A DNA stretch of 54,650 bases, counting the filler, from Jimgerdemannia flammicorona (taxonomy: Eukaryota): the NCBI GenBank assembly GCA_003990765.1. It is 2 parts of 2 records of this genome, joined end to end, with 100 filler letters (N's around TTAATTAATTAA, not from the genome) between each part and the next. Parts side by side here need not be neighbours in the genome. Positions count along the whole stretch, not along the records: positions 1 to 27,279 come from RBNJ01000644.1; 1 more part is not named here. One strand, given 5' to 3'. Of this stretch, positions 1,332 through 38,218 are shown in pieces. A program made the position numbers and the translations under genes. The notes beneath the pieces were generated by a model. The model was given only the letters and a program-made list of their open reading frames with translations. It ran no database searches and was not told where the DNA came from. Positions within the stretch are counted from its first letter, which is position 1. Each line of letters opens with the position of its first letter.

Positions 1332-2395
1332 ATCAGAAGAAGGGTGTCCCGAGGAACCACACCCTAAAGGAAGCTCCTCAGACTGTCAAGGCACAAGAAG
1401 ATCTCATCCGTAAAGAACATCAGAAGGCTCATCAAGGACAGACAAGTACAGAAGACAAGATTCGAAAACAACATCAACATTGGCCCCACCTCAGAACTCA
1501 AGTCCAGGACATCATCCAGAAATGTGACATCTGCCAGAAGTACCAAGGAAAGAAGAACTACCAAGCCCCCCTGCAACCAATTCCCCCACCCACTCACATC
1601 TTTCAAAGATGGGGAGTAGACGTAATCGGGCCTCTACCAGTTACACCAAGAAGAAACAAATACATCCTTGTATTTGTGGAACATCTGACCAAGTGGCCCG
1701 AGGCTTTTCCAATGGAAATCACAGATGCCTTAACCATTGTGGGCCTCCTCCATGGACTCACACTCAGATATGGACCCCCAGAAGAACTTATCTCTGACCG
1801 AGGCACAGAATTTATCAACAACATAATCACGAGTTATGCCCGAATTCACAAGATCCACCTCAAACAGACCATATCATACCACCCTCAGACCAATGGCATG
1901 ACAGAAAGGATGAACCAGACCATCAAGAAAGGACTTGCCCGAGTCAATCCTACCAATTGGGACCTCTGCTTACCTGAGATCCTATGGGAAATTCAGAATA
2001 CCCCTGCCACATCCACCAAATAAAAGCCATTCGAAATGATGTTTGCCAAGAAAACCAGAACTACTGACCATGAGAATCTCGGAGATCTCCTCAAGAAGGC
2101 AGAACAGTTATGAAATCAAGCCCAAGGACAGATTATCAAAGCCCAGGAAAGACAAAAGAAGTACTATAACCAAAAACAGAAGGATCAGGAGATCAAGATT
2201 GGAGATCAAGTCCTAGTTTAGAGAAGCATGATTGAGACAAACTTTGCCGCCAAACTGGAACCGAAATGGGAAGGACCTTATCTTGTACACAACATCAGAG
2301 GAACCAACATCTATTTAAGAAGCATGGATGGACGAATCCTGAGAACACCAGTATACATCAATCGCCTCAAACTGTATTTCCCCTCTACACCATGA
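1328..2395 (+). pseudogene. Integrase of element A, in its own frame with its own ATG
   Basis: HHCC finger (H-QKAH...CDIC), WGVDVIG, ISDRGTEF, YHPQTNGMTER and C-terminal KWEGPY. The frame continues through three transition-type stops to TGA 2393-2395. Confidence 0.92.
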
Positions 2396-2907
2396 GCCAG
2401 AGGATTGATCAGCGCCTCCAGACATTGGTCCTCAGTTCCTTCCAAGCCCTGCCAGTCCCTCTACCCCAATTCGGTCAAGCCAATGGAAGCCCCCTCCAGA
2501 GGATCCAAGTTCATCAAGAAAATCTCATCCTGGCCAGATGCCTACTACAAGTCCACCAACTGTAGGCCTATTATGCAATCGGCGAACAATTGCAGAACCT
2601 CCCAGCCCCAGAACAGACCTACATCAGAAATACTACAGGTCTGACCAGAAGAGACACTACTGCCGCAGACAGACTATACACCATCTACAAACGAAATGTC
2701 ACAGCCCTGACACAGGCACAATTCTCCCTGAATGATATTCAAGGAATGAACCCTGTTACTTATCTGAGCATCATCAACTCTGTCGAAATCCTATTCCCTG
2801 AAGAAGAAGAAGAGCTTTTAGAATGGAGTAACCCCAGCACAGACAATGAAGATGATGGAACAGATATAGATGCAGAAGCAGCCTATGCTTATTGGGATGA
2901 TGACTGA
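2392..2907 (+). pseudogene. Accessory ORF of unknown function (~171 aa, YYxIG family) between integrase and PPT
   Basis: ATG 2392 overlaps the integrase stop. One internal TAG (2563-2565) joins ORF-track pieces 2266..2565 and 2590..2907. Sequence: MSQRIDQRLQTLVLSSF...QVHQL*AYYAIGEQL...AADRLYTIY...acidic tail. Confidence 0.8.
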
Positions 2908-2946
2908 AGAATAGTCTGAGACAGACTACTCTTCAGTGGGGGCTGA

Positions 2947-4327
2947 TGTGACAAGCCAAGACGTACCACCCGAATCATATCTTAACCAGATGACGCAAAC
3001 AGAATGACGTGAACACTCAGCTTAGTAACCAGCAACTCTTGTTGCGGAAAACTGTATAAATAGCCAGACATACTAGAAAGGGTCTGTTTACCTGTACAGA
3101 CTCTGTACACCGTACAGACTCTGTACACTATACAGGTCCTGTACACCATACAGACTCTGTACACCTGCCATAAGTAGCAGATCTATAGTTAGCCACATAG
3201 TAACCAGATAGCAACCAACTTGTATAAATTACCCCAGTGGCAAGAGTGAATAAAACCTCAGTCCGAATTGAAGTGCAAACCAAAGAAGCCTCTAAAGATT
3301 GAGCAATTGGTCCCCTTATTCCCACTCCAGTCCACTTTCCGATACAAAGAAGAGTCTGATACGTTTTTGGTTCGCTTGCCAGATAAGCCTGAAGAATTCG
3401 AGTTTGCCGCCTAAGTTCAAGAAGAACTTCACTGCTTTTGAAGAGAAACCCTTGGTTCACTTGCCAGATAAGCCTGAAGATTTCCGCCGCCTTTCTTGCC
3501 ACAAGCCAGTCTTTTGACACAACTTTGCAGTGGAGCCAGTCTACGACGTAACCCCGCGCAAACGAAGCCAGTCTTTGACGTAACTTGCTAAGAATCCGAG
3601 TAGTATTCCCAGTTGAAGCCGATTCAGGAAGAATCCACGCCACCTGAGTTATCCGAGTTATCTGCCGTTTCTAAGTTATCCGCCGTATTCCCAGTTAAAG
3701 CCGCCGTTTTCAAGAAGTCCGCCAATTCGGGAAGGATCCACGTCGTCCACCATTTTCAAGTTATCCGCATTCTCAGAAGAACCATCCGAGTTATTCGTCA
3801 TTCCCAGTGAGCCCGAGTTAGCAAGTTATCCACCTCCCGAGATAATTCCCAGTGAACCTGGTATAGAAGATACCACGCCAAATATTCCCAGTGAGCCAAA
3901 TCAAGTTATCCGTCAAATCTGCATAAGGAGAACTGCTAAATTGCCAGACCATCACACATAAGGAGATCGTCGCACTACACAGAGATCGTCACGCAGAAAT
4001 TGCATAAGGAGAACCGCTAGATTGCCAGACCGTCACACCCAGAGATCGCATACTTTTGGAGATCGTCACACTACACAAATTGTACCATTCCCAGTTGACC
4101 CAAGAAGGAAGTCCATTCACACACAAATCGCCGCTACACCCAGAGAACCGTCCCAAAAAGGAAACCACTCGCACAGTATCCAGATCTTGACTATTATACC
4201 GCTAAACACCAAGGACCTCAGGAATCTTAGAACATTTTGTTGCTTTTAACAAAGTAACTGGGGGCTCAAGCCAAACTACATCAACCCCCAACCTTGTAAT
4301 TTGCCTCCATTGAGCCGGCACGTTACA
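2947..4327 (+). repeat. 3' LTR of element A (~1.38 kb) with internal 18-bp tandem repeat and TATA-like box
   Basis: TG...CA ends with an imperfect terminal inverted repeat (TGTGAC/GTTACA). About four CTGTACACCGTACAGACT-like units at 3090-3165; GTATAAAT at ~3222. Confidence 0.8.
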
Positions 4328-6319
4328 CTATTTATATTTTTATCTAATAATGTTCTGATTTAATATTCAGTTCAACTGCTGTTTAATTTGTTTACATTTC
4401 TCATTTGCATCAAGTTGGAATTCACATATCATTGAGGTTTATGTTTCATGAGTCATTGGTCATATGACTAGATGTTCAGAATAGTGGAAGGTGAAAATAT
4501 TTATATTGTAAATTCTGGTATACTAATAGTTATTCTGATATTCTTAGTGAAGTTTTCTAACAAGTTGGTGATCTTATATCTTAAATTTCATATTGTCTGA
4601 GGTCTTATATCTGATTTCCATAGTAGCAGTTCTTAACTAATTGACTTGTATCTTCTTGTGATGATTTTCATAGTAGTGGTAGTTCATATCTTAAGTTTTG
4701 TAATGATTTTCATATTAATTTTCAAAGTGGTAAGTGTAATCTCTTAACTTTTGGAGATAGTATATTTCTCTATAAATCTCTTTTTACTTTAAACTATTTG
4801 ACTGAGATTTATTCACTCTTATCTTTGGGAGTATTTATATCTATTATATCTTAATAGTAAGGTCTGGATATACTATTAGTTTGCCAGTGGTAGTATATCA
4901 ATAGTAAAGACTATACTAATGGAGTAAGGTTGGAATACTCTTGTTCTGTACTACTGACAAAGAATGTTTAGATAATGGAGGCTATTCTATATTTGGCTAA
5001 ATTATAATATACTTATGTGAAGAGTAGTACTAACTAAATCAGGTAAGACTGAAATATCTTTTGTTCTATATTACTAGTAAAGAATATTGATATCTGCCTT
5101 AAAAGGAATAGTATTCTTTGTCAGTGGTAAGCAAATCACCTTATTGGATTGTAACTTCATCATACTGCTCTTCAAAGAGGAGAAGTATTGGCCAAAGAGG
5201 TGAGGGGATAGAATAGTGGCCAATCATCTTCAATGATGTTTTCTAACCCTTGCATAGCTTAAAGGCAGACTAAAGACTGGTATATTCTTTGTTGTTCTTC
5301 TTCTTGAAATTCATCAGTTTGGACATCTTGAGATACTATAGCAGTTTTGATAGTAGAGTCTTGGTGTTCTTCTTCTTCCAGAATAGAAGCTTCTGGGACC
5401 TATTAGTTCAGCTTCTATACAATATAATGTGACATATAACTGACAGAGTAGTGGATAGTCATAATAGCTTCTGTCAGTACTTTGATGGTAATGGATAGTT
5501 CTTTGAAGATTTCCATGAAACTTATCAGATGGTCTTGATAGTTGTCTTAGAGAGGGGTAGTATGAAAGCCTGGCAGAGTGAGTTCAGTTTATTGACTTTC
5601 TATAGTAATACAGTTACTTCTGATATAATTAGCAACTTCAGCTTCTATCTAATTGACTTCTTCAGTAGTGAGGCAGACTATATTTCTAGTGGTAACTCTT
5701 TGTAAGTGAGCTATAGTCTAGAATATATAGTGGAAGATTTGGTGGACATGAAGGGCTCTCTTGATCAGTCAGTTAGTGGTTAATAGTTTGGTAATGAGGT
5801 CTTCCCAGTCATCTTCTTAGGTTTCATTATAGAGATGGTGTCCAATTTCATAGTTATGTCAGAGAGTCATTCAGTCAGTAGTATTCTTGAACTGCTAGAT
5901 CATATGTAGTAGTAGTTGATGAAATGTCCAAGATCTTCAGTATAGAAGTTCAGATGTTCAGTGGTATCAGAGTACCAGATAGTCATTTTGATGGCTTTGA
6001 GGACAAGACTCTTCAGACTTGGTAAAAGAGTACTGCAGTAAGAGATCTGGTTAGAGTGGTAAGAAGGAGACATTATGTTCTTGTTTGTTCTGATTCTTCT
6101 TGATACACTAGGTCTAGGTTCTTTAAATAATGTAGTCTTTATTTTAGCTTAAATAATCATTACTTCTTTTGGTCAGATTATCTGATAGATTAAGTGGGTC
6201 ATCAGATAGTATCATATAATTATTATACCATAAGGTTGGAGTTATGATCTGATCAAAATAATTGTGAGATCTGTCATCATTACTTTCTTATTTCAGTATT
6301 ATCAGTTGTACATGTCATA
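4328..6319 (-). repeat. 3' LTR of element B (last ~70 bp cut off by insertion of element A)
   Basis: Colinear with 14545-16514; differences are mostly transitions. Confidence 0.9.
5180..6073 (-). pseudogene. LTR-encoded accessory ORF of family B (3' LTR copy; end approximate)
   Basis: MSPSYHSNQ...SLKSLVLKAIKM...MTL*HNYEIGHHL...KRALHVHQIF...VTTRNIVCLTTEEVN...acidic tail. Several stops and one 1-nt indel relative to the 5' LTR copy. Confidence 0.72.
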
Positions 6320-9300
6320 TCTGCTCCTTGCAAAATTAGAGCCATTCTCAGTAGTGATAGTTATACAAGATTGAGTGATCTTAACTTTAGAGATAAGTAG
6401 GATATTGATACATTTGCAAGAACTGGCCATTCTTATCTAGGGCAAGAGCTCTCATTGTTATGGCTGAGGGTTTGAACTTCTTAGAAATGATATTTTCTAT
6501 AATCCAAGATAATTTCTAGTAGCAATGTCTATTATATGAATAAGCTTAAGAATGGTTCCAACAGTGTTGACTTCTTAAGTTTCAGATGAAGTGTCTATCA
6601 TTCTCCAATAGAGGTGATACAGATGAAGTGAACAGAGTTATTCAAATGTATTTTGCTTCTCTTAGGTAGTAGAGTCTTATATAGTTGCAGTGTATCTTGG
6701 TCTTAAGTAAAAATCCATTCATGGTCTTGAACTGGTAGATATAATTTAAGAATACTTAGTGTATGAGATAAGGTCCTTCCCATTTTGGTTTGAGTTTGGC
6801 ACTCCAGTTTCCTTCTATGATAGATGGTATATCAAGACTTATTGTCTAATAAGCAGGGATTTAAGATCAGCTTTACAGTTATAGTACTTCTTTTATCATT
6901 CTTGTACTTTGACAATAAATTCTTATACCTACTGGTATACTTTGTATAACTGGGTGATCTCTTCAGTAACTTGTTTTGTCAAATTTAGCTAGATTGATTT
7001 GGTGGGGTTCTGTGCTTCTTGGCCATATATCAGATAGAAAGAGCAAGTAGCAGTTGCCTTTGAAGTTCAAATACTGAACAAGATTGCTGAAAGATAGATA
7101 TCTTAGTTAAGTTAATCTTAGGTTCTACTGAGACCTTGTTTGATGGTCTGGTTCATTTGCTCAGTAAGTCTATTTGTCTGAGGATAGTAAGCTATTGTCA
7201 GCTGCAGCTTAATCTTGAAGTTGCTTACAAAGGTTTTCATAGCTTTGTTGATGAATTCCCAGTCTTAGTCTATAATGATTTCCTGAGAACACTATGATAG
7301 CTGAAAATTTCATCATACAGGATTCTAATAATTGTTGGGACATTAGTAGTCTCAATGGTAAAGGCTTCAGGTCATTTTGTTAGGTCATCTTTAATGGTAA
7401 GGATATAGTATCTTCCTTAGCTAATTACTGGAAAAGACCTAATAATATCTATTCCTAGTCTTTAAAAAGCTCTAGCTGGTGTTGTAATTAGTATTAGGAG
7501 TGTTTTGTCACTTGACTTTTATTAGTATCTTTGGTAAAAATCACATTATTGAATATATGTTGAAATTTGTTTCCTTATTTTGGATCACTAGTATTGCTTC
7601 TTGATTCTTATAATAGTAGTACCAATTTCTCAATACATATTCTGATTATAGTTTATTATCAGAATTTTAGATATTTCTTTTTCTCTTGGGATATGGATAT
7701 ATTAATCTCCTTCCACTCTCTAAAGTTTGCCATTGTCTTCTTGAAATTATTTTAAGTTTCTTTAGATGAATAGCTTATGGGTTAGCTAAATTTCTTTCTT
7801 AAAGCTCCTATGGTGCAGACTTCAGATGAGGGTGAGGCATAATTCTTGGTTTATTTAAGAGAGTAAAAAACAGCCTTCTCTTGTGAAGGCTCTTTCTCTT
7901 CTTGTTGATTCTGTAGGATTTTTGACAGAATATTGATATTAGAATTCTTAACACCTTTCTTATAGATGATAGTGAACTGGTATTCTTGCAAGGATATGAT
8001 CTATTTAGCAAAGATTTCTGAAGATTCTGACTTATTGAACAATCTTGATTGTCTGTAATGAGAGTAAATCTCTTTTTCAGAAAATAGTGTCAAAAATGGT
8101 CTACTATCTATACTACTGCTAGACATTCCAACTTGGTGGCTCCATAGTTTGCTTGTAATTTATTTATGGCTTTGCTAGTATATTCAATAATATGTTCTCT
8201 CTTTTGGTCATCTTGCTGGGACAGAATTGATCTAAGTCCTAAAGCTGAGACATTGATTACTAAGATAAAGAACTTGTTGAAGTTTGGTCAAACCAGAATA
8301 GGTGTTTCAGTGAGAGCCTTCTTAAGTAGATCAAATGACTTCTGTTGGTCTTCCTTTTAGTAGAATGATTGGTCCTTCTTGGTAATATCTTATAGTAGTG
8401 CTACTCTATTAGAAAATCTTGAAATAAATTGCTGATAGTAAGATACTAATATGAGAAAGGATAGAGTCTCCTTTGCTGAGCTTGGGGTTGGGTAGTTCTT
8501 GACTTTCTCCACCTTATGAGAGTCAGTATGGGTTTCTTGGGCTGAGATAATATATCTCAGATATTCAACTTAGTATTTTTTAAAGAAGTATTTCTTAATA
8601 TTAAATCTAAGTCCTGATCTTTAAATAGTATCAAATACTTTATGGAGATCTTACAGATATTGTTTGAATATTTCAGAGTAGATGATTATATTATCTATAT
8701 ATATACTAGTATATTTCTTCCAATGAGGTCTTAGTAGACATAGTTCATCATTTGTTGAAATGAGGCTAATATATTACAAAGTTTAAATAGTATGTAAAAA
8801 TATTCATACTGTTCTCATCTGATAATAAAAACTATCTTGCAGATGTCATTCTTGGTAATAGATATTACTTATAGTCTGTAGTAGTCATGTACTTGACTTT
8901 TCTAAGAGCATTGAGGAGATCATCAATTTGCAGTAATGGGTAGGTATCCTCTATAGTAATCTTATTGAGTTTCCTGAAGTCTACAACTAGTTTCAATCCT
9001 CTTTTCTTTGTTACTATAATTACTGGTGAAGCCAATAACTCTATTTCATAATATTTCTTCTATATATTGTTGTTCAAGCCCAATCAGATAGTATAGTATT
9101 TGGTATGAGCACTATCATATTAGTTTTACATCTCCTATATATATGACATATTCTTTATATTAATATAGTAGAAAGTTATTATATATTGTGGTAAATATAT
9201 CTTTATATTCTTCTATCAACTTTTATATCTATTGTTACTGATCCTCTATTAGAGTTTTCTTGATATTGATGGCTTTGATTGCTGAGTCTTCCTCTCTGAT

Positions 9301-9699
9301 ACTATCAGTCTCCAGAGAGGGCTTACTATTTTTCAAGAATTTGAAGACTTCTTCCTCATAGGTGTCTATCAGTGATTCAAAGTATCCCAGTATTGTTTCT
9401 TTGGGAATTATTACTACTTTGAAGCCCAAATTTCTAATAGGAATATAAATTGGTAATATCTGATCATAAATTCATTCTGTAGTAGGAGGAGGTAATACTT
9501 TTCTTGAAGTTTGATTGAAGGCTCAAATATCAGATAATTGTTATCTTCTAGTAGATATATATCTAGGCTTCTTTATTAATAAGACTGGAGGATAACATGT
9601 TCTCTTACTCAAATAAGGTAGCAGAAGTGTGATTTTATTTAACAGAACTGAGCTACTGTTGCTAAGTGAACTTCTATAGATAATTAAGTTCTATTGATA

Positions 9700-10100
9700 C
9701 TTTCAAAGCCTCCTTGTCCTCTCTGGTACTGCTGAGTTGATCTACTTCTTGAATAGTTGATTGTGATGTCTTAATGAATAGAATCTGACAGATGACTTCT
9801 TAGAGATTAAAGACTTAGTGATTTCTGCTGCTGTTGTAGATGATAACCTTCAGTGGATCTTAATAATCTTGGTCAATAACTCCTCCTGCTACTGTAACTC
9901 CTTTGGCTACCAGAGATGATCTTGATGGCAGTTGACCATAGTGTTTAGGTGGTATAGTAAGTGTAATTTGAAGATCAAAGGTCTTTGTAATTCTTAGACA
10001 GAATATTGTCTGATAGTGAAGACAGAGATTATATTCAACTGATTCTTCTGTTTGTATAAGAGAAAGTTATACCCAAGATGATAGTAACTTGACTTAAATG
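9700..10100 (-). pseudogene. dut: dUTPase domain of element B (between PR and RT)
   Basis: HYGQLPSRSSL, GGVIDQDY, ICQILF and RGQGGFES correspond to trimeric dUTPase motifs 2-5. Confidence 0.88.
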
Positions 10101-10959
10101 ACTGGCTGAGTTTTGAGAAATAGTATCTCTGTAGTTACTATTGTATATGAGAGCTCTATATATTCTGGCTTGAAAAATAGCCAATATACTCCAGTCTTTG
10201 AGTTTCTTATATAATTGAATTCTGTTCTTCCAAGTAGATTCAGAGCTTCTATGAAGGCAAAGACAAGATTGACTCCATGGTTATCTTAGTAAGGGTGGTA
10301 ATGCCAGAAAATAATTGCAAGTAATTCTAATAGCAAATCTCAAATAGAGGTCTTGCTCTTGACTTTGCAGTCTCCTTTATGATTGATCTGTTTGCATTTT
10401 TGACAGGTCCAGCAAATTCAGAGTTCTTATAGAGTAGAATCATTTCTCTTGACTTGGCTTTTGTAGATATCATCACTGAGGTGAATACTTTGATATTTGC
10501 ACCAATAATAGGTAAAGATCTTTCCACAATTATAGTATCCTTGCTTGACAACCTTCTCATTCCACTGCTTGACTTTCTTGCTTATAGGATATCTCCTTTG
10601 ATATTTATCATAAGTGGATAGGGTAATCTGAAGAGCTTGGGTGATAGTGTAGATATTGTTGTTATCTTCTTCAATTGTAAGAGTTTCTAGAGGTTGATAA
10701 GAGAGGACCTTTTGTTCTTTCTTATAGGTTTTCTTAAATATCTTTGGAGTTAGTAGTTGTATTTTTTTGAGTACTGGAGCTCATTTTTACTCATCTTTAT
10801 CTGCAATTAGTAGTATTGGAATCTTCTTGAGATCAAAGATTTGATAGTTACTGCAATCATTTCTTGGTGAGTAAAAATAGTTATAGTATTCATATGTATA
10901 TGCCTAAGCAAAAGGCTCACATGATTCTGTTTTCCTTCAGAGGTAGTGGTGGTTATATA

Positions 10960-11281
10960 TAGTGCTCTCAATGAATTGAATCAAATCAAATTTGACCCAA
11001 ATTCAATTTGATTCAAAATTCAATTTGAACCCTATTTTTTGAAATATAATAACTCGATTAAAACATGTCCAAATTTAATGGTCTTTAGCTTGTTAGATCT
11101 CCTTATATAAGGGGAATCTAACAAGCTAAAGGTCATTAAATTTGGATGTGTTTTCATCGAGTTATTACATTTTGAAAAATAAGGTTCAAATTGGACCATC
11201 AGTTTGATTCGAATTCAATTTGATTCAAATGACCCTCAATTTGATTTGATTCAAATTGATTTGATTCGTTTGGGAGCACTA
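10960..11281. mobile_element. 322-bp palindromic MITE with hAT ends, inserted in pol of B
   Basis: Termini TAGTGCTCTC...GGGAGCACTA. 8-bp TSD GTTATATA / GTTGTGTA (two transitions). Nearly self-complementary about ~11107. Confidence 0.92.
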
Positions 11282-11949
11282 GTTGTGTAGGTGATCCTGC
11301 AAACTCAAGTGTTGCTTGTTCACTAATAGCTCATTCAATACTTTCCTCTAAGTCCTCAGTGTTAACAATTTCAACAAATGAATCTTCTTGACCACTTTCA
11401 GAGTCTTAGAGAGCATCAAAATTACTTTCTAGTTCTTGTAGGAAATTGGCTTCACTTTCATTTTCTGTAGAGATAGGTGTATCTTCATATCTCTGCTATT
11501 TTGTTTCAGAGGTCTGACTTACTTTTCTTAAGGATCCTCTTGATTCAATTGGTATCTTGTACTTCTGTCCATAGAAGGTGAAGACTAGAAGCTATTTCTT
11601 GATATTTATATTAACTCCAACTTAGTATAATCAATCAGTTTCTAAGATCAGATTATAAGAGGTTGCTAGAGTTACCATAGCTTGTGGTATATTGAGATAG
11701 GTTTTTTCAACTTGAATAGATATATATATCTCTGACTAGTCTAAGGGAGGTAGATGCTGATCCATCTGCCATAATGACTCTTGCTTTAGTTCCTTCATCA
11801 ATTTTCCATCCAATCCTCTCTAGTATTTGCTGAGTGATAATACAAACTACTGCTCTAGTATTAATAAGGATTCTAGTATTTTCACCATATACTTTTCCAT
11901 TGACAAGTCTTGTAGATTGATATTCTTAGTACCAGTTTTCATAGACTGC

Positions 11950-14420
11950 ATGAATAGTGCTAGGCTCTAGTATATGTAGTCCTTAAATAGAAATTCTCTT
12001 AGTATCTTCCTTGACTTTCTTCAGAAATTTTTACCTAACTTCTAGTATATTCTTAAGGACTTTTTCAAATGTAAGATCTGTATTATGTATACAGATGTAT
12101 TTCCAAAGGAATGCTGCTTCATGGGGTCTACTATTTTTTAATATCTGGATTCTTTATAGTGAGTCCTCTCATTTCTATTAGGTATTTTGTCAGCTGAAGA
12201 TTCTATACCCATATACTTATCTTTAAGGTCAGGCTAGGAAGCACTTCTTGATATCCTTGAAGGCCTGGCCTTCAATTCAGAGATATCTCTTCTGACTTGC
12301 TTGTTATTTTCCTAAGAAGTATCTGAGGAGGAGTGGCCATATCTTGAGTGTTTGTCTGTGGATACTGTCACTGGCAGTGGTAGTAGAAGATGGGTCCTAG
12401 GAGGTCTTTCTTGTCCTCTGGTCTGTGCTGGAGCAGTATTCCAAGTCATCTTAAAAAAGAAGATATAGTATGTATTCTCTTGATTATAAAGCAAGGCAGC
12501 TTCCTCCTCTATTTCTTAAGTCTCTTCATCCATTTGAATGAGATTGATATTTCTGTCATTAGGTGAGGGTTGTTTCTTTAGGCAGAACCTCTGAATATAG
12601 CCTTGGTTTCTACAGTTAAAATATGTTGAGGCATAAGTACTTATTGTTAATGGGTCTATAGTTATAGCTAATAGGGCTTGAGTAGAACTTCTGTTGACTT
12701 GCTGCCAGTAGTCTGGTCTACTATCATGGTAATAATCTTGCTGTCTTCTTTCTTGGTTCTTTAGCTGAGTAACTACAATGGCCAAATCCTTTATTTGTTT
12801 AGTGAGTATTATCATGGGGTCTTTTTAGACTCTTGGTGGAGACTGTTACTATTGCTGCCTATACTGAGTTGGAATTAAGAGTGGGGGTCTGATCTCATAA
12901 TTAGTCAACTGTACTCTTAAGTAGGTATTCTTTTATCTATAGTCATTTCATGAATTCTTAAAATTTCAGCTTGAGTGGAATCTTGATATTCTTGAATCTG
13001 CTGAAGTGATCTATAGTCTGCTTTCTAGTATCCTTGTGCTCCAGCAACTTGCTACTCAATTCTTCAATAATCCATCCTAATAATTTATCTCCAAAGCTCT
13101 GAAAATATTCTATTGAGAAAGGTGGTTGAGGCCAGGGCCAGTTGGAGTGCAGGTTACAAGTTTGTCTTGATCATCTGGGCTTAGATCTGATGATAGAAAG
13201 CCTTAGAAGTTTTATTAGCAGCTTGGCTCATATAGATCAAGGCTTCTTGTACTTCTTATTGATACTTAAGGCCATTGAACTGAGTGTAGAACTAGATCTT
13301 GTGGATATTATATCTGTCTGCATGATCTCCATTTGCTCAAAGATTGTTGGCTTATTCTGTTATATAGATTTCTCCTCCAACTTGCCTTGCTTAGTTGTAC
13401 TTCTATAGAGCAGAACCTCTCAGAAGTGATTCTATAATTCTGAGCTTTCTCTGGGCATTCTATTGTTTGATAGCTACTTATACTTTGATTTCTCCAAGGA
13501 ATTCCTCAACATCTTCACTGACTGCACTATGGAATTTCTGAAGATAGCTTATCTTTAGTTTATTTTTACTATCTAAGTCTAGTTCTGGAGTAGAGTTTCT
13601 TGAGATGGAGATAGTGGAGATACTTGGTAAACTAGTGATACTGGCAGGAGATGGTGTCTTAGTAAAGATGTAGAGAGTCTGGCTCTTCTAATTAAAGCTA
13701 GTATAGAGGTTCTTGATAGTGGTAGTTCTCTGATTAAGTGATAATGATCACTAAATACTGAGGTTCTGAGAGGGCTTGGGCTTCTTATTTCTTATGGGTA
13801 GTAACAGAGTATGAAAGATCAAAAGACTGATATTCTGACAACTGAGATAGGACTGATGTAGCTGATGTTCAATTTATCTACCCCTTGCTATTATGAAGTA
13901 GTAGGGTTCTGTTCATCTTGCCAAAGGTCTGTATTGTTGTCTGAGTAATGATAAAGGTTGAATTTGTCTCTTGGTTGGTCTGGTTGGCTTCCCCAATCTT
14001 CATCTTCCTCTGGTTCTGGAAGATAGAGATGGTAGTCTTCCTCTTCTTCAGATGTTTCAAAGTATACTTGATCTAGAGTTGCTTGAGAGACAATAGTAGT
14101 AATATAATCACTTCTGTCTAAATTTCTTCTGTAGATTAGGGTCTGATATTCTTCAGGAAAGTCTTCTGCTGGTTCTTAACTTTGGGTGGAAATGGGCTCA
14201 GGTTGTCCTCTAAGTCTTTTTCTTTCTCTTGAGGTTAAACTATAGTCTGGATCACTTCTTCCTTCTGATTCAGTTGTCTGATTACTGATTCTGAACAGGG
14301 TGAGGACTGTTCTGATAATGGTGTGAGCTTCCCCTTCTAAGGAGGGCAGTTGTTGGGCCTAGTCTTGTTGCTGACTAGTTTCTCCTGAATTCTCTACTAT
14401 AGATAACTGCTGAGTTCTTG
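11950..14420 (-). pseudogene. gag: gag of element B (limits approximate)
   Basis: Decayed zinc knuckle YFNCRNQGYIQRFC at ~12580-12625; KFHSAVSEDVEEFL major-homology-like segment at ~13500-13540. Confidence 0.8.
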
Positions 14421-14469
14421 AGCCAAATGGTCAAGTCTTTAGAAAACTTTTCCAGTTGAGTCTCTAAAA

Positions 14470-16514
14470 TATGGTATATAATATGTATATCTTACTTACA
14501 GAATGCAATACTTAATATACTACTTGGTTATCTTATATGTATATTATTTATCTTTTTATCTAATAATGTTCTAGCTTTATATTTAGTTCAACTACTGTTT
14601 GATTTGTTCACATTTCTCATTCATGTCAAGTTGGAGTTTGCATATTATTAAAGTTTACATATTGTGAGTCATTGATTATGTGACTAGACATTTGGAATGG
14701 CAGAAGATGAAAGTATATATATTGTAGATTCTGGTATTCTTGGTAAAGTTTCCTAGTAAGTTGGTAATCTTATATTTTGAATTTTTTGTAGTCTGAGATC
14801 TTATATCTGATTTCCATAGTAGTAGTTCTTAACTGATTGACTTGTATCTTCTTGTGATGATTTTCATAGTAGTGGCAGTTTGTATCTTGAGTTTTATAAT
14901 GATTTGTATATCAATTTCTGAGATGGTAAGAGTAATTTCTTAACTCTTGGAGGCAGTGTATTTCTCTATAAATCTCTTTTTACTTCAAACTATCTAATTG
15001 AGATTTATTTACTCTTATCTTTGGAGGTATTTATATATATTTCTACTATGCTCTAGTAGTAAGGTCTGAATATACTATTGGTTTGCCAGTAGCAGTGCAT
15101 CAGTGGCAAAGACTATACTAATGAGGTAAGATTGGAATACTCTTTCTGTGTTACTGGTAAAGAATGTTTAGGTAATGAGGGCTATTCTATATTTGGCTAA
15201 ACTATAATACACTGGTATGGAGGGTGATACTAACTAAATCAGGTAAGACTAAAATATCTTTGTTCTGTTTCACTGATAATGAATGTTAATCTCTGTCTTA
15301 AAAGGTATAGTATCCTTTGCCAGTGACAAGCAAATTATCTTATTGAATTGTGACTTCATCATACTACTCTTCAAAGAGTGAAAGTGCTGGTCAAGAGGTG
15401 AGGGGATAGAATAGTGGCCAATTATCTTCAATGATATTTTCAAACCCTTGCACAGCTTGAAGACAAACTGAAGACTGGTAGATTCTTTGTTATTCTTCTT
15501 GGGTTTCATCAGTTTCAGTATCTTGAGGTACTATGACAGTTTCAATAGCAGAGTCTTAGTATTCTTCTTCTTCTTAGATAGAAGCTTCTGAGACTTCTTG
15601 ATTCAGCTTCTATATAATGTAATGTGATATATAACTGATGGGATGGTAGGTGGATATAGTAGCTCCTGTAGGTGTTTTGATAGTAATGAGTAGTACTTCA
15701 AATATTTCTATGAGACTTATCAGATGGCCTTGATAGTTGTCTAAGAGAGAGGTGATATAGAAGTCTGGTAGAGTAGGTTCAGTTTATTGACTTCATACAG
15801 TAACATAATTGCTTCTGATATAATCAGTGACTTCAGCTTTTACCCAATTGACTTCTTCAGTAGTGAGGCAGACTATATTCCTAGTAGTAACTCTTTATAA
15901 GTGAGCTATAGTCCAGGGTATATGGTAGAAGATTTGGTAGACATGAAGGACACTCTTGATCAGCCAGTTGATGGTTAATAGTTCAGTAATGAGGTCTTCT
16001 TGATCATCTTCTTGTATTATATTATAGAGGTAGTGTCCAATTTTATAGTCATACCAAAGAGTCATTCAGTTAGTAGTATTCTTGAGCTACTGGATTATTA
16101 TGTAGTAGTAGTTGATAAAATGTTCAAGGTCTTTAGTATAAAAGTTCAGATATTCAGTGATATCAGAGTACTAGATAGCCATTTTGATGGCTTTGAGGAT
16201 AAGACTCTTCAGACTTAGTAAAGGAGTACTGTAGTAGGAGGTCTGATTGGAGTTGTAGAAAAGAGACATTGTATTCTTATTTGTTCTAATCTTCTTAATA
16301 TACTAGGTCTAGTTTCTTTAAATAATATGACCTTTATTTTAGCTTAGATTATCATTGCTCCTTTTGGTCAGACACCTGATGAGTTGAATAGGTCATCAGA
16401 CAGTATTGTCTGATTATCATATCATAAGATTTGGAGTTATCATCTGATTAAGGTGATCATGAGATCTGTTGTTATTGCTTCCTTATTTTAGTATTATCAG
16501 TTATATATATCAAC
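14470..16514 (-). repeat. 5' LTR of element B (~2.05 kb)
   Basis: Direct repeat of 4328-6319, followed on the minus strand by a PBS-like sequence. Confidence 0.9.
15380..16269 (-). pseudogene. LTR-encoded accessory ORF of family B (5' LTR copy; end approximate)
   Basis: ATG 16269 is in frame with MTLWYDYKIGHYL at 16065 (68 codons apart) and continues SVLHVYQIFYHIPWTIAHL*RVTTRNIVCLTTEEV. Confidence 0.75.
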
Positions 16515-23479: not shown

Positions 23480-23965
23480 TTGCAGCCTAAGTGGGGTGGG
23501 GTTGGCAGTAGCGGCGGAGGGAGCATACAATATTTGCAGCCCTCAGCCAGCAGCAAGGGGCAGCCCCAAGCTGCCAGTGCTCGGGTTGGTGGGTGGGTTG
23601 GTGGGTGGGTCAGTTGGTCAGTGGAGGGAGTGCGCAAAATTTGCAGCCCTCTGCCGGCAGCAAGGAGTAGCCCCAAGCTGCAAGTGTCCAGGTCAGGGGG
23701 GTAGGCAGAGGGAGCATATAAAATTTGTGGCCCTCTGCCAGCAGTGAGGGGCAGCCCCAAGCTGTCAGCACCCAGGTTAGTGGGTGGGGTCAGTTGGTGG
23801 GTGTGGGGTTGGCAGAGGGAGCATGCAAAATTTGCAGCCCTCCATCAGCAGCAAGATGCAGCCCCAAGCCACAAGTGTCTGGGATGAGTGGGACAGGTGG
23901 AGGGAGCATGCAAAATTTGCGGCCCTCTACCAGTAACATAGAGGCAGCCCCAAGCTGCTAAGAAG
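23480..23965. repeat. GC-rich tandem repeat, five ~85-110-bp units, inside the hAT
   Basis: Core GGGAGCATGCAAAATTTGCAGCCCTC...GCAGCCCCAAGCTG recurs at ~23520, 23626, 23710, 23817 and 23902. Confidence 0.85.
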
Positions 23966-28727: not shown

Positions 28728-31700
28728 AGGATGTTTGGTGTGAGAATGAGGATGATTGGGTTGAGTGGACTAGGGAATGGGGTGGGGCTGCTGCTTGGTT
28801 TGGAAAAGTGGTGATTCTGGTGAGAAAGGGTAGAGGTAACTTGGGGAGTATTGGGAGCTGGAGTGATCACTTGGTCTGGGGAGATTGGCATCAGCCAGGG
28901 TAGGAGTCAGTGAGGGTTGGCTCTTGCTACTGCCCTGTGGTTAGGGGTGAGGATTGCATGGATTAAGGAGCTGCTGGAGGAAGGTATTCTCTTGGGGGAA
29001 GGGGTTGATGTGCTTGGGAGGGACTTTAATATGGTTTGGGATCAGCATCTGGACTGAACTGACAGTAGATGGGGTACAGAAGGGAGGAGTGGGGGCCTGG
29101 ATGCATGGGAGGAGATGGAGAGGCTGAGCTCCTTAGGAGATATGGGCAGAATACAATGGGGCAACTCAAGGGTCTACACATATTGGGTGAATGGCTTAGG
29201 TACAAGGATAGACTAGATTCTGATGGCAGAATGTTGGGGGTCTGATGTCTGGAAGGCTTTGGAGGTGGAATGGTGCCCATGGTCTGATCACTGGTGACTG
29301 TTGGGAAAGGGGCAGTTTGGGGGGAGTGGAGATGGACCCAGACATTGGTGCCTTAACTCCTCTCTGCTGGCTGAGAAGGAGTTGTAGGACTCATGGGTAA
29401 AGGACATTCAGGCGAAAATTTCCTGCTGGAGGTGTGAGGGTTTATCAGTGGGTGTCCATTGGATGAGATTGAAAGAGGCTGTAAGGGTCTATTGGAGAGG
29501 AGCTGGGAGAGAAGAGGGGAGGTGGATGAGGAAGCACATGAGGTGTGCTTCCAATAGGCTGAAGAGATTACATATGGATTGGGCAGGTCTGCTTGCTGCT
29601 GATGGGGTGGAGGACTGGAGGTTGGCATGGGTTAGATTGGAGATAATGGAACTGTAACAGATGTTGAGAGAAGAGGAAGAGGTGCATATACAAGATATGG
29701 CTGCAAGGCTATGGTGGCAGGGGCTCAAGGAGGGTGAGTGGCCTATTAGATTTTTGTCCCATCTGCTCAAAGCTAGGAGGGTGAGACATCGGTGGGATGG
29801 AGTCCTAGATGCTGATGGAGACATGGTACATGGCATGCAATGAATCTTAGGGGTTTTGAAAGAGAGATGGTAGAGTCTGTGGAGTGAGGAAGAAGGGGAT
29901 ACTGATGGGGTGGCTATTGAAGATATATTAGAAGAATTGAGGCCACCACAAGTGGCTGGACTGGAGGACTTGGCCTTGCCAGTGTGAGGTGAGGAGGTCC
30001 AAAATGTCCTTGCAGCAATTAGACCCAGAATAGCACCAGGGGAGGATGGACTACTGTGGGACTTTTGGAAGAAGATAGTTATAGTCTCTGGTATTTTGGG
30101 TGAGATGACTGCTCTCTATGATCATGTTCTTCAGAGTGATGAGTGGGTTAGAGAGCAGGACCTTGGGCTGGTGGCTTTATTGTACAAAGACAAGGGGAGG
30201 AGAGAAGACTGGAAGAACTGGTGGCCAATCATGCTTTTGGACATGGACAGGAAGATGGTGACTAAGGTGATTGTTGCAAGGCTGCAGAAGATTGTCTAAC
30301 AGGTACTGGGAGAGGAGCAGTGGAGCTTTGTTGGGGGTAGACTTATAAGAGATAGGACTGCATGGGTGCATGGTGTCATTGAAGGGGCCCAGGCTTGTGG
30401 CCTAGATAGAAGGTTGATTTTCTTGGACCAGGAGAAGGTCTATGACCAGGTCTAGCAAGTTTGGCTGTGCAAGGTGTTGGATCATATTGGTGTTCCTCCA
30501 GGATTTCAGGCTTCTATATTGAGTCTGTTAGAGACTGATGTTTAATAATTACCATGGTCTGGCATTTACTTTGGAAAGAGGAGTTCCTCAGGGAGACCCC
30601 CTGTCCCCTATTCTTTATGCCCTCTCTTTGGAACCTTTGATGGATAGAATTCACCGGAAGGTGGTAGGGCTCTCTATCTATGGTATAGTGTGGAAGGTGG
30701 GAGTATTTGCAGATGATATGGCAGTTGGTCTTGGGTCTGTAGCAGATGTCGAGGCAATTAAGGAGATGGTGGAATAGTATGAGGATCACTCTGAAGCAAA
30801 GCTCAACTGGCATAAGTGTGAGACTATAGTGCTGGAGAATGGGCTGGTGGGTGGGGACATCATTGGAACATTTGTTCCTACTGGTGAGATGGTATGGTAT
30901 CTGGGCATCTTCCTCTCTGTGTATGGATCTCTCCTGCCATGAGTATGGTGGGAGAGCAGGGTGGCTGCTTGGGGGGAGGCCCTTTGAGGTTGGGGAGGCT
31001 GCCATATCTCTCTAGCAGGGTGGGTAGCAATTCTGAATGTGTACTGATTTCCTAAGCTATAGTATGTGGCCTACCACCTTGACTTCCCAGCTTGGGTGGT
31101 AAAAAGGCTGATTAAGGTGACTAGGGATTGGATTTGGACAGGGTGGAGGTCCCAGATCAGTTGAGATACTCTTGCAACACCAGTGGTCAGGGGAGGTCTT
31201 GGCCTTGTAGATTTCCCTAAGAGGTTACACTGCTTGCAAGCCTGGTGGTTGAAGAGAGCAGCTGAACTGTAAGGAGGGGATTGGGTGCCTCTGTTGCAGA
31301 AGGTGTGGGAGATGTGAACCTCCCCTTGAGGGTCCTTAGAAGACCTACTCTCTTTGGTGGGACTTAAAGGAATTCAGAGACTGAGATTTAAGGGCTTTTG
31401 GTGGGGAGTGGTTGATGGAGTATACAGAATTGATCTGTGCTGGCAAGGTATTGAGGGGAAGATGTTGTGGAGACCTAGTATGTAGCGATGGGATAGATTG
31501 CTACTGGGGGGTGCTCCACTTGCTACTTTTGATATTGGGGACAGAGTGGAGTGTCAGCAGAGTCTTGGCCAGGATCTTTGGCCAAGTGGCTGGCAGGTAG
31601 TCAGGATTGGTGAGAAGTGGGACTGGGCAGGTATCTGGTCTTGGAGTGCTAAGGTACAGTGGTGGCTTCCCCTCAAGTTCTGAGTGGTGTGGTGGCAAAT

Positions 31701-33914: not shown

Positions 33915-36900
33915 ACTCCTCCTTCTACTGAGAGTCCTTTCAATGCTAGGCTGCTGCAACAGCATATTCTTCCAACATATCCTTTAGGAATTTAGATGCT
34001 AATTCCTATATGGACTTGCTTGACTTCTCAGTTGGAAACTGTAGCTTCTTCAGCTGCATATAGGTTATATTCAGCTGCCTTTTGACTTCCTTTTTTAGTT
34101 GGTGCTTTAGCAGTTTGCCTTAACTTGACAAAGTCCAGTATTCTGGTAGTCAGGTTGTTGAGGTGGTGCAGAGTAGTAACAGTTGCTCACATTGCTGTTT
34201 GGGATTTTCAGTTAGGGTAGGCACTGGCCATGTGTCCTGTCTTTTGGCAATAGAAGTATACTCTGCTTCTTCAAAGTTCATTTCTTTCTCCTTCAGTGAG
34301 TTTCTTGAAGGTACTTGGCTGAGTGGGTTCATGATTTCTGAGTGTCCATGAGGTGGATGTTGAGGGAGCTCAGGATGCTTCATACTTGGGTTCTTCTCTC
34401 TTGATCCAAGTCTTTTCCTTGTTGTTGAATTGTCTTTGAGACAGAATTGGTCCAGCTGTTAGGATTCACTTGACCATAGTCTTGATTCTTACCAGGCACC
34501 ATTGTTGGTGGTCACAACTAACTGGGCAGCCTTGTTCTCAGATTTTTCTAGTAAGCCATTCAGGCAGAGCATCAAATAAATGGTCTGCCCTTGTACCATT
34601 TCATGCTTCATCATTGGCAATATATCCTAGGCCAATGGTGTTCAGGAGTGACTCAAGTTTTGTACAGAAGGTTTCAAATTCTTCTTTGCTATATACATCA
34701 AATTTGAGGTTGTGAAGTTTTACTTGAGATTTGGCAATTATGGTTTCACTGCAGTATTGAGCAATCATGAGTTGTTTGAGTCTAGGGGCTACAGGATGGG
34801 CTTCATATCCTGGGGCATTATTTGCTGTATTCTGGATAACTACTGTAGGTTGGATATCCCATATAAGGGATTTTTTAGGGAGGGTTCACCATCATTCTTT
34901 GGCAGGTCCTCAGAAGAATGTAACAACTTAGCAGACATAGGCTGTGGTAGTAGCAAAGAGTTGTTTCAGAGTGTGGTCTTGATTGTTTGTCAGAAGACAG
35001 TCGGCAACTTGCTCATTGGTCCATTGATTGGCTTCAAAGTTGGTATCAACCACACCAATAAAGCTTTGGACTTCTTGTATAGTACTATTGAAGATAGGTA
35101 AGCTCAGATTTTTGGTAGGTCAGGTCTGTTTGGCTAAGGCAGTAATGGTTGCTGCCATTATTGCTACCTAGGCTGTAAGGTCTAGAATCTGTTGGTTTGC
35201 TATATTGTTTACTGGAGGTGGTTGGACTGCTGATAGTGGTATTGCTTGTACTACTTAGGATACTGGTGCTGAGTGTGATGGAGTTCTTTGAGTCTGTATA
35301 AGTTACTGGAGTAGTAGTTGTGGGTCTGGAGTAAGGGCTCAATAGATAGCTGCTTGTTGCTATGTTGGTGTATTTTGTCCTGATGGAGGTGTATCTCCTT
35401 TGGTGGTATATCCAGAATCAAATTCACTGAGATACTCCTCCTTCTCTTTGGTTTGGTCCCCATGTAATTGGGTTTGCTCAGCATCAAAGTAGACGGAATC
35501 AGTTATATATCTGATTTCAGATGGACTTAATTCAAAGTCAAGTTCTGGTTCAGTATTGGTTTCAGATTCAGGTAGAGCTGTAGCAGAGCCTGCCTCAGTT
35601 TCAGAGTCAGGGAGTTGATGAAGGGTTTCTCTTACTTCTTCCTTAAGAATATAGCAGGCCTTGCTGTTCTGGAATCAGTAGTATAGTGTGGTCTTGGTTC
35701 TGGTATGGTGAAAGTTGGTGGAGTTGAGCCACTTAGCTATAGAGACTTGGGCTTCGTGAGAAACTAAGGCTAGAAAGACTGCTGCTGGTTGTCCTAGATT
35801 GCTCAGATTTGTGGAGCTGACAAAACTCTTATTGAGAAGAGTAAAGAAGGCTTCAATAAGACCTTCTTCATCTTGACTTGCTGGGTGTAGAGCAAGGAGT
35901 TCAGTGAATAGAGTTTCACCTATTTGCTAATTTAACTGGAGTTTTTGAATGAAGTTTGTCCCACTTGTTGTAGGTGTGAAGGTCAAATTGTTCTTGTATG
36001 TCAGGTTCAATTCTCTCCAGATTGTCAGATGGTTCAGGATAAATTCTAGTTCAGAGGTTGGGCTTTATATCAACTTATAGAAATTCGCAGAGGGGTTTGT
36101 AGCAAGGTGAGGAAGCATCTTGAAGTGGGATTGGATTGTAAATTGCTGCTACCAAGTTGTAAGAGGGTTGCTTTTTAGGGTAACTGTTATGTAGTTCTGG
36201 AAGAGTTTTCTGGAAGTTCTGGATATTCTGGAAGACTGTTTTCTTATAGTCAAGATCAATTTCATATGGAGTATGTCCTCTATACTTATTGATTTCAAGA
36301 TCAGATTGATGTCTCAACCAAAGTCCTTTTTTGGACTAGTTCTGAATGTTCAGGATTTTCCATATTTCAGGAGGTTTAAGAAACTAAGGCCAGCTTAGTT
36401 GAATTGGCATATCGCTGCAGACAATACCCAATTAGGAAATTTCATGATAGGGTTAGGAGTGGGACCTAACAGGAAGCAGATTTACTTAAGAGTGGTTTGT
36501 GGGTTATTAAATAGGTTTATTCGCTATTCATGATATTGCTATACTAGGAGTAGTTGTATAAAGAGATATTGTGGGGAAGTATTCAGGATTGTTCTTGTGT
36601 GTTTGAGTCTGAGATTCTGAGGTCTGTGAGAGTGGGTATTTATACTAGTGAGGGGCTATCTGAACTATGCTGAATATGGATATAGTACTTAGTACCTTAT
36701 TGAGTCAGAATGCAGTCATGTAGTACAAGTGTGATCTGACATATCAAGAGATCATCTGACTGCTGAGTCAGTTCACAGTCATGTTATATAAGGCTAATCT
36801 AACTATACTATGACTGTTAAGCTATTAATAGATTTAGACACTGTCTGAGTAGTCTTTGATGACATCACTATTGATGACATCATCTCTGATGAAGTAGTCA

Positions 36901-38218
36901 TCTAGAAAGAGTGGTTCATGGATTACTTCTCCTTGTTCACTAAGGTAATAATACATTGGGACTTCATCACCATCTCACAGGATTGCATCATTTGTCTCAT
37001 ATGCTGGATAAGGTGTTGGTGGGCAAAAGAGTAGTGCATTGTCTTCGCTTTCATCGGATTTGCTATTTGTATATCTTTTATAGATTACAGTACTATTAGT
37101 CACAGGGTTGTAGTAAGCTGGTGGCTGTGGTTCATATCACTTGTACTCAGGTGGTAGAGTTGTTGGTTCGATCTCAAGGGTTGTCTGAAGATACAGATTG
37201 TGTTCTCCAGTCTCTTCATTATAGTTGAAGTAATCAGAGGTGAATGCAGATTAGTATTCATGCTAGTGGTCATTGTCCCAATAAGTTTTGTATGTGGTTA
37301 TGAACTATTGTAAATTCATCAGCAAGGTTGGCAGTGTGATCAGGGTTGGTAGAGATCCTTGGCTTAATGTTATGTCAGCATCAGAGAGATCATTGTCTTC
37401 TGCTTTGTCTTCATAAAATTGGATTATATCATAGATGTCCTTCATAGTATATCCAACTTAGGGCATTTGTAGGATGTGGTCATTAGGGTGTAGGAAGGTT
37501 TTGTCTGTGGTCTCAACATACTTGAGATACTTTTGGTTGAGTTCTTGTATCATGTCATCGATTTGGCCATAGGATAAGGTAGCAACCATTTCACTGATAG
37601 TAACTTGGAGGCGAGGAATAATGGTGCTGTACTCATAAAAGAGTTCTCAGTATTTGCAGGCAATGAGCTTCTAGTGTTGAGATATCTAGGTAATGTCCAT
37701 GTCATGGTGGTGTTCAACTATGTCTTCTAGGAGATGTCTGATCTAGTAGTAGCTTGAGATTTGTCCAATCCAGTGGATCTCATTAAGCATGTTCAGAGTG
37801 TTCCATCAGCTTCTATGAAGTAGAGGGGTGCTAGGCTATGGATATTCATGAGGGGCAGAGAGGGTGTGGCTTGGTTGGCAATGGCATTCCAAATATCAGC
37901 ACAGATGCAGTTGTAGATCTCAGTGGTCATGTTTGTATGTTCCGAAGTTATAGTTGTTGTTTGTTTTAGTTCTCTGTTTTGATATGTCTTGGTGCTCGGT
38001 ATATATACATTTGGTTCTGATTGATAAGATTTTATTTGTGTGAATCTTGTGTTCTATGACTTCATATTGACTCAGCTTTGTGCACTGTGACTTCAGTTTA
38101 ACTCAGCTTCATGATTGTGCAGATGATTTTCAGATTTGTTTGGAGGTCGCACATGATTTTGGTAGCTTGTTCAGAGGGTGATATGTGATTTCTGTGGCTT
38201 GAAGGTTGTGTGCTTACA
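33913..38218 (-). mobile_element. Family C element, copy 1: 5' LTR 36158-38218, PBS, gag; 3' part replaced by the poly(A) retroposon; inserted in the RT of element D
   Basis: LTR TGTAAG...CTTACA; PBS TGGTAGCAGC at 36145-36154. Gag from ATG 36118 with decayed knuckle YFYCQKTGHMASAY at ~34218-34260. Confidence 0.9.
36834..37930 (-). pseudogene. LTR-encoded accessory ORF of family C, copy 1
   Basis: Colinear with 44390-45487; several stops and a 1-nt deletion. Confidence 0.85.

Follow-up and report, generated by a model that had tools for sequence, protein, structure and literature searches.

Complex retroviruses carry accessory genes at the 3′ end of the genome that lie in or overlap the unique 3′ region (U3) of the long terminal repeat (LTR), as known for sag of mouse mammary tumour virus, lentiviral nef and foamy-virus tas/bel, the last with an internal promoter. 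Foamy-virus Tas ends in an acidic activating region, and its gene is served by a second promoter upstream of it. Among Ty3/Gypsy retrotransposons, the plant Tat, Ogre and Athila elements have an extra open reading frame (ORF) between integrase and the 3′ LTR, and we know of no such ORF in these elements that sits inside U3. Here we describe extra genes in a stretch of 54,650 nucleotides, filler included, from Jimgerdemannia flammicorona (GenBank assembly GCA_003990765.1), hereafter the window, in which parts of two records are joined by 100 filler letters and positions 1 to 27,279 come from RBNJ01000644.1. By Pfam, tblastn mapping and self-comparison, the window is a nest of fungus-like LTR retrotransposons, and three Ty3/Gypsy lineages within it, here called A, B and C, each have one extra gene at the 3′ end of the genomic RNA. 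The ORF follows pol in A and lies inside the LTR in B and C, and the encoded proteins belong to no described family.

As with retroviral sag, nef and tas, the extra gene stands 3′ of pol and lies partly or wholly in U3, and hence is duplicated in both LTRs. In contrast to these genes, the elements of the window are Ty3/Gypsy elements without env, no relation to the retroviral proteins was found in sequence, Pfam family or fold, and the ORFs of B and C, each ~1 kb, are wholly enclosed by U3. The ORF of the plant Tat, Ogre and Athila elements is placed as in A, a comparison made by position alone. Third ORFs of varied kinds, including non-env ones, are described after pol in Ty3/Gypsy-like elements of bdelloid rotifers, some of them with dUTPase, in PMC5408684; the third ORFs named there are enzymes or env-like proteins of known families, whereas the A, B and C ORFs are without a known family and two of them lie in the LTR. 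Boty-like Gypsy elements of Botrytis cinerea carry an extra gene of unknown function, brtn (cited in PMC8365987), which is antisense according to the cited title, in contrast to the sense-strand, 3′-terminal ORFs described here; this comparison is by description only. In the open-access literature, judged partly from titles and abstract openings, no description of an ORF inside a retrotransposon LTR was found, and the searched passages of a survey of fungal LTR elements (PMC3248453) do not mention a third ORF. The LTRs of crapaud are given as short and without an ORF in part of PMC10787394, and the ORF3 in the relevant passage of PMC13159263 belongs to a Penelope-like element. The general idea of accessory genes at the 3′ end or in U3 is already known, and what appears to be new here is a gene embedded in U3 together with an orphan protein.

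One extra gene at the 3′ end of each of three Ty3/Gypsy lineages

Element A is cut by the start of the window, and its pol (positions 3-2395, + strand), delimited by Pfam, tblastn and the sequence, encodes reverse transcriptase (RT; Pfam RVT_1, 5.7e-34), RNase H (RT_RNaseH_2, 2.5e-16) and integrase (rve, 3.5e-9; Integrase_H2C2, 5.2e-9). The order RT, RNase H, integrase is that of Ty3/Gypsy and was found by Pfam in A and by tblastn in B. This copy of pol is degraded by in-frame stops and one frameshift and ends with TGA at 2393-2395, which overlaps the ATG of ORF A (2392-2394) as ATGA. ORF A (2392-2907, +) comprises 171 codons, with its stop at 2905-2907 and a single in-frame TAG at 2563-2565. 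In a public relative (P0014), the accessory frame is open for 41 codons further upstream, across the integrase end. The stop of ORF A is followed by a purine run, AGTGGGGG, and then by TGTGACAAG at ~2941, which we take as the putative polypurine tract (PPT) and the putative start of the A LTR, respectively. Together, the purine run and the putative 3′ LTR occupy 2925-4328 (+); the boundary of this LTR rests on motifs, the second LTR of A lies outside the window, and the LTR reaches at most to 4328, where element B begins. TATA-like boxes are present in the putative LTR at ~3056 and ~3220, and an 18-nt near-palindromic unit, TACAGACTCTGTACACCA, is repeated 3.9 times at 3095-3165, directly upstream of a TATA-like box.

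Element B lies on the - strand, is complete and has a pair of LTRs, the 3′ LTR at 4329-6317 (~1.98 kb) and the 5′ LTR at 14545-16512, which were recognized as a repeat pair with aligned ends and share 82% identity over 1997 nt. The 3′ LTR begins with TGTACAAC (~6312) and is preceded by GCAAGGAGCAGA. The internal region (6318-14544), mapped from its ORF list and by tblastn with A pol, encodes gag with a zinc knuckle, protease, RT, RNase H and integrase, and is heavily mutated; A pol matches it at 39-52% identity in RT and 34-46% in integrase. The start codons of ORF B at 6073 and 16269 (-) are ~240 nt inside the LTRs. The copy in the 3′ LTR (B1, 5100-6073) has many stops and a frameshift near 5900, and the copy in the 5′ LTR (B2, 15298-16269) keeps a single frame, in which 12 stops were counted over 307 codons (16269-15349) and at least one further stop follows. 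Both copies are AT-rich, with a GC content of ~33%.

The C-type LTR is ~2065 nt long and is present in four copies, namely C1, C2, C3 and a partial copy (42589-43340, +). Copy C2 (36158-38218, -), found by self-comparison, ends in ...TTACA and is followed by the primer binding site (PBS) TTGGTAGCAGCAA and a gag frame (34900-36157, -; tblastn and sequence), so that C2 is a true 5′ LTR. Copy C1 (43712-45774, -) begins and ends as TGTAAG...CTTACA on the + strand, is flanked by a 5-bp target duplication (CAACC/CAATC) and splits a gag into codons 1-111 (43341-43711) and codons 111-289 (45776-46312). The possibility that C1 and C2 are the two LTRs of one element was ruled out, as C2 is a 5′ LTR, whereas C1 is a solo LTR inserted into the gag of a different copy. 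Copy C3 (+) is severed by the insertion of another element, D, ~70 nt upstream of its ORF start, leaving the first 264 nt of the LTR at 46340-46603 and the continuation at 52642-54068, with the ORF copy at 52674-53771. The best copy of ORF C is that of C1 (44390-45487, -), which starts with the ATG at 45487, 288 nt into the LTR, and comprises 365 codons down to 44390, of which two are in-frame stops (codon 20, TGA; codon 319, TAG). The C3 copy also spans 365 codons in one frame, with 8 in-frame stops, and the C2 copy (~36830-37930) has a frameshift and stops. A deletion derivative at 41911-43711 (+) joins a B-like integrase end (41911-42444) to the final ~20 codons of ORF C and the 3′ part of the LTR (the partial copy named above), followed by a PBS and gag codons 1-111, a layout that suggests a tandem or recombined arrangement. 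The motif TGA[CG]TCA, which we take to be the AP-1/Gcn4 site, occurs 22 times in the window compared to 7 expected, with 12 occurrences in C-type LTR copies. In C1, paired sites precede both the ORF ATG and the TATA box of the LTR, and C2, C3 and the partial copy have such pairs as well. Between the LTR start and the ATG of C1 (288 nt), a unit with TGAGTCA is duplicated (45655 and 45624), a TATATA box stands ~75 nt upstream of the ATG, and a TGACTCA pair (44320 and 44257) stands upstream of the main TATA box.

In both B (~15035) and C (~44200), the TATA-like box of the LTR follows the ORF, and because of this order the B and C ORFs are placed in U3. They therefore stand at the 3′ end of the element RNA, the same functional position as in A, and are carried along in both LTRs as well as in solo LTRs. 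The original prediction, made on this DNA from the sequence alone, had put ORF A after pol and ORFs B and C inside the LTR, and this layout was borne out by the LTR pair of B, by the PBS and gag that follow C2 and by the target duplication of C1; the ORF limits of A and the start codons of B given above are likewise those that it had named. Of the 12 peptide strings it had quoted, 11 are exact and lie where it placed them (A 2410-2748, +; B 5670-6019, -; C 45131-45469, -), while LRHDYEIGHHL is absent from the sequence and is a blend of L*HNYEIGHHL in B1 and LWYDYKIGHYL in B2, as had been stated. It had quoted ORF C as a short stretch, which underestimated a frame of 365 codons. A shift of the PPT, proposed there as the candidate origin of the long LTRs, fits the layout; the window contains no C-type element with its 3′ junction intact.

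Coding character and decay of the frames

On the sequence evidence, we hold with high confidence that A, B and C are real extra protein genes. Public sequences that are independent of the window and 55-86% identical to these ORFs have kept the frames open, which points to genes that are, or formerly were, under selection. When 5.8 billion proteins were searched by means of a word index, 5 relatives of A were obtained from 115 candidates (75-82% identity), two of them open at 171 and 172 amino acids (aa), and a third open member of the A family, of 171 aa (P0031), came from a cluster look-up. For B the same search yielded 7 relatives among 2585 candidates, one of them open at 325 aa, and members of the B cluster are open at 324 and 331 aa; for C it yielded 1 relative among 246 candidates. 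An exhaustive comparison of C with 1.84 billion representatives returned 3 proteins at E<=0.001, two of which are relatives that cover ORF C in two pieces: P0005 matches residues 1-128 at 86% identity, and P0004 matches residues 115-365, at 67% when aligned in full and at 69-70% within the matched part. The protein P0006 (E 1.7e-6 in six stretches) was rejected as a relative of C, being a repeat protein that matches a short helix repeatedly and was judged spurious. All public relatives of A, B and C are short-contig records without names, alignment scans of viral contigs gave no relatives of A or C, and the scans of metagenome contigs found no relative.

The capture of host gene pieces, a known route by which retroelements gain extra ORFs, is one candidate origin. 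Against such an origin, the 5.8 and 1.84 billion proteins gave relatives on short contigs only and no longer or named host protein, and the ORFs matched no Pfam family; we regard host capture as quite unlikely. If, instead, the ORFs were open by chance within long non-coding stretches of U3 or spacer, interrupted frames such as those of the window, with 1 stop in A, 2 in C1, 8 in C3 and 12 in the codons read of B2, would be in keeping with it, as would the fast variation of U3 (described in part of PMC10787394). However, independent public sequences are open over 171 and 324-331 codons at 55-82% identity, the frame is kept across copies, and there are a codon-position bias and a synonymous excess, which makes chance frames very improbable.

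The codon-level evidence comes from the C-type copies, in which one frame is kept over 365 codons in three copies and the stops are point mutations. The differences between C1 and C3 number 59, 31 and 83 at codon positions 1, 2 and 3, respectively. With the ancestor taken as the majority call of the three copies, changes in the C1 lineage are synonymous in 43 cases, non-synonymous in 33 and stops in 2, whereas the full set of possible C>T and G>A changes predicts a synonymous share of 38% (z ~3); the mutation spectrum is context-biased. The synonymous share is near the neutral expectation in C2 (38/90) and C3 (35/86). The claim of a selected third gene in the original prediction is favored by the open relatives. 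Nearly all differences between C1 and C3 are transitions (161 of 173), and in the C ORF copies C>T is found mostly at CpA (45/92) and G>A at TpG (37/62). The decay pattern of the C ORF and the B LTR resembles that of repeat-induced point mutation (RIP) or of deamination.

Build and relationship of the three proteins

The three proteins share a build, with a helical N-terminal part of ~130-160 aa followed by a strongly acidic, aromatic and proline-rich tail. By net charge the tail is most acidic in C (-41), less so in B (-24 to -29) and least in A (-15 to -18), with 4-29 F/W/Y and many P; the isoelectric point (pI) of the N-terminal part falls from 9.1-9.6 in A through 6.2-8.1 in B to 5.4 in C. 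None of the three matched a Pfam family above the cut-off, the best hits of PDB sequence searches (E 0.21-0.39) were judged noise, and a Foldseek search of the PDB with the model of A gave 0 matches at E<=0.001; the description of the protein as unknown in the original prediction is in line with these results. As ORF A occupies the position of env, a degraded env-like gene was also considered. However, the highest Kyte-Doolittle mean over 19 residues ranges from 0.57 to 1.09 across 7 proteins, so that no membrane segment is present and the proteins are not env, in agreement with the original prediction, which had seen no evident transmembrane segment; moreover, no env family was found in Pfam, and the protein is small, helical and acidic. 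An origin from env is barely credible.

We then come to the question of whether A, B and C form one family, for which protein comparisons gave the following results. By BLASTP, A and C align with E=0.001 (22% identity over 137 residues), and B and C with 0.39. The Smith-Waterman score of A and C is 70 compared to 35.5+-5.7 for shuffled sequences, with 0/1000 shuffles reaching the real score (Gumbel p 2.5e-4), and A against the C3 copy gives p 9e-4. Among 360 six-frame segments of the window, the C ORF was the best non-self match for all three A-family members tested, and for the open B protein C ranked second and third. Profile-profile alignment, which the original prediction had proposed as a check, gave a mixed outcome: hhalign aligned B and C with E 0.012-0.015, the match at 0.012 spanning 70 columns and pairing B 73-146 with C 60-130 in the register originally proposed, and A and C with E 0.02 for full-length alignments and 0.0072 for the N-terminal parts, and reversed profiles score about equally. 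When the profile columns were permuted, the real score was reached in 1/150 trials for A-C, 2/150 for B-C and 5/150 for A-B. Semi-global alignment of B and C gave z 3.1-3.8, reached by 4-6 of 500 shuffles, and that of A and C gave z 3.0-3.7 for the open relatives and 6.0-6.6 for the window copy of A. The best gapless three-way block, from a search of 10-residue blocks with offsets limited to +-30, is the motif of the original prediction, HYAIGEQLQN (in A also with Y in first place) / DYEIGHRLRN / YYQIGRLLED, which starts at residues 60, 74 and 61 in A, B and C; its score is 69 compared to 42.0+-5.2, with 0/300 shuffles reaching it and pol decoys scoring <=60 in 36 trials. In the tails, B and C have collinear motifs, EDDWPLFYPLTSWPA and EDNTPILHPPTSYPA (BLASTP E 0.042), and by eye only, NDEV and LF..D..Y occur in the same order in B and C, and the end of A, AYAYWDDD, resembles AYETYWDND of C. 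In the ESM Atlas, P0011 (A) and P0005 (C) share their nearest clusters at 0.93, which is a lead only, as shuffled proteins score so and the clusters may be hubs. Overall, the similarity of A to C and of B to C is marginal, each near p~0.01, and that of A to B is at chance. DNA comparison within the window found no nucleotide similarity among the ORFs or LTRs of A, B and C, and the original prediction had likewise seen none that was evident.

Several results weigh against a single family. The pair A-B is at chance (nothing by BLASTP, semi-global z ~0), and hhalign at best (E 0.047) places A 47-60 opposite B 103-116, in another register. Reversed profiles, which preserve helix periodicity, scored 20.5 for A-C compared to the real 21.7, and 23.8 for B-C compared to the real 20.5; a combined A and C profile leaves B no higher than reversed decoys; one reversed control in the block test reached 68 with an unrelated block; and P0012 scores 39 against reversed C and 40 against real C. 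The open relatives of A score 45-49 against C, compared to 70 for the window copy, and because these relatives match C less well, the A-C pair of the original prediction is the luckiest one. The motif PLP lies C-terminal to the first helix in A and C and N-terminal to it in B, and the N-terminal part of C is acidic, unlike that of A. Structural models do not help either. The AlphaFold model of the A family, from 6 sequences, is all helical (H2-18, H34-68, H72-81, H86-101, H103-109, H113-118 and H121-132), with a disordered tail at 130-171 and a mean predicted local distance difference test score (pLDDT) of 57.8, and its best match in a wide structural search was a designed helical protein at Z 5.5, the level of generic helical models. 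The model of C (pLDDT 31.6) is unusable; its helices (3-18, 27-54, 61-77, 85-102 and 121-140) follow an order that resembles A, which carries little weight, and the two models are too poor to superpose.

These results would be expected if the ORFs, at least A with respect to B and C, were unrelated orphans gained independently at the 3′ end, with a likeness that is convergent and due to amphipathic helices and an acidic tail. The 3′ end is where LTR retroelements tolerate extra sequence, A and B are no more alike than chance, the reversed controls equal the real profile scores and include the 68-point block with reversed C, and in bdelloid rotifers the LTR elements of one host have varied and unrelated ORF3 types (PMC5408684). 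On the other side, several tests place both A-C and B-C at about p 0.01, the best block lies equally far from the start in all three proteins, and B and C hold their ORFs at the same place in sister elements. We consider independent gain a serious alternative that nonetheless falls clearly below an even chance.

The relation of B and C can also be approached from the elements themselves. The last 570 nt of the B integrase end share 70% DNA identity (over 576 nt) with 41911-42444 (+), and the last ~20 codons of ORF C, with the 3′ part of the LTR, begin within 145 nt of this B-like integrase end. Because the B-like integrase end adjoins the tail of ORF C and a C-type LTR, C-type elements have a B-like pol, and B and C are thus sister lineages with ORFs of similar size (325 vs 365 aa) that occupy corresponding sites in LTRs of a similar kind. 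For sister elements with the ORF at the same LTR place, common descent is the simpler reading of B and C, and for the same reason the two are not independent cases. The accessory proteins of B and C share ~20% amino-acid identity as against the 70% DNA identity of the integrase end; if they are homologous, the ORF would evolve much more rapidly than pol, as does U3 as a whole, where no DNA similarity between the B and C LTRs is left. The original prediction of three divergent families is thus modified, in that there are three Ty3/Gypsy lineages of which two are sisters. Its claim of one protein family stands as to the shared motif place and build, and a common origin was not established, with A-B at chance and reversed controls as high as the real scores. 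We regard homology of B and C as fairly probable and that of A and C as slightly favored, with A possibly a more distant member of the B/C family; for all three together the balance falls just short of even, and a common origin of the three proteins is only suggested by the sequences.

Neighboring elements, proposed role and meaning

Element D, a chromovirus inserted in C3 (46604-52641, +), is near-complete, with ~400-nt LTRs, the PBS TTGGTAGCAGTGG, a dUTPase adjoining protease, RT, RNase H, integrase and a chromodomain (1e-17). The extra ORF is absent from element D, which serves as a contrast case outside the finding. No chromodomain was detected in the integrase ends of B and the C-type element, both of which are mutated, and the pol of A ends without one. 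The pol frames of B (6400-6800, -) and of the C-type element (42000-42444, +) extend ~120 codons past the end of A pol (...RLYYLR), and neither a chromodomain nor another family was detected in this extension. At 38236-39728 (-) there are a second dUTPase (1.3e-24) and an RT fragment of another element, which was truncated by the insertion of C2 at 38218. The ~16 kb between 19000 and 34900 have a GC content of ~47% and gave a Pfam match in 1 of 103 ORFs scanned, an RT fragment at 30532-30774 (+); this stretch contains internal repeats at 23491-23958 and a 190-nt direct repeat at 28728/32497.

With regard to expression, a subgenomic RNA or one with its own start site is the probable source of the accessory protein. 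For A, the overlap of start and stop codons as ATGA suggests that its translation may be coupled to the termination of pol, or that a spliced RNA may be used. In C, the TATATA box and the two TGAGTCA sites before the ATG would be the first of two promoters in one LTR and would serve the ORF, and if this two-promoter view holds, each LTR, solo LTRs included, could express the accessory protein. The protein is probably an element-encoded regulator or adaptor, and its likeliest role, comparable to that of the retroviral 3′ accessory factors Tas, Tax, Nef or Sag, would be to activate the LTR of its own element; activation would fall to the acidic-aromatic tail, and the 18-nt repeat at 3095-3165 in the A LTR is a possible binding site. 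A helical N-terminal part with an acidic aromatic tail would correspond to the usual build of acidic activators; the activating-type region is present by composition only (net charge -15 to -41, 4-29 F/W/Y). We tentatively rank an LTR transactivator or regulator first among the functions, while considering it unlikely in itself, and an anti-silencing factor, a targeting or transport adaptor or an assembly helper may be lower-ranked candidates. Taken as a whole, the favored explanation, in which these are extra genes at the 3′ end, those of B and C are homologues, that of A is possibly related and the product is a regulator or adaptor, has in our view about an even chance. A further proposal, that a fast-evolving family was taken into U3 with a promoter of its own, so that each LTR, solo LTRs included, would be a small self-contained gene whose product, a helical binding part with an acidic activating tail, would activate the LTR promoters of its own family in trans or guard them against silencing, in the manner of foamy-virus Tas with its internal promoter, is rather improbable.

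Extra genes other than env are rare in LTR retrotransposons and hardly described in fungi, as far as the passages of PMC3248453 show. A gene of ~1 kb wholly within U3 would recast long LTRs and solo LTRs as carriers of genes, beyond their part as promoters. Should the three ORFs be unrelated, the 3′ end and U3 would still be a hot spot of gene gain in these lineages. If the protein is a regulator of its own element, these retrotransposons would offer a simple system for how retroelements gain the accessory-gene logic of complex retroviruses.

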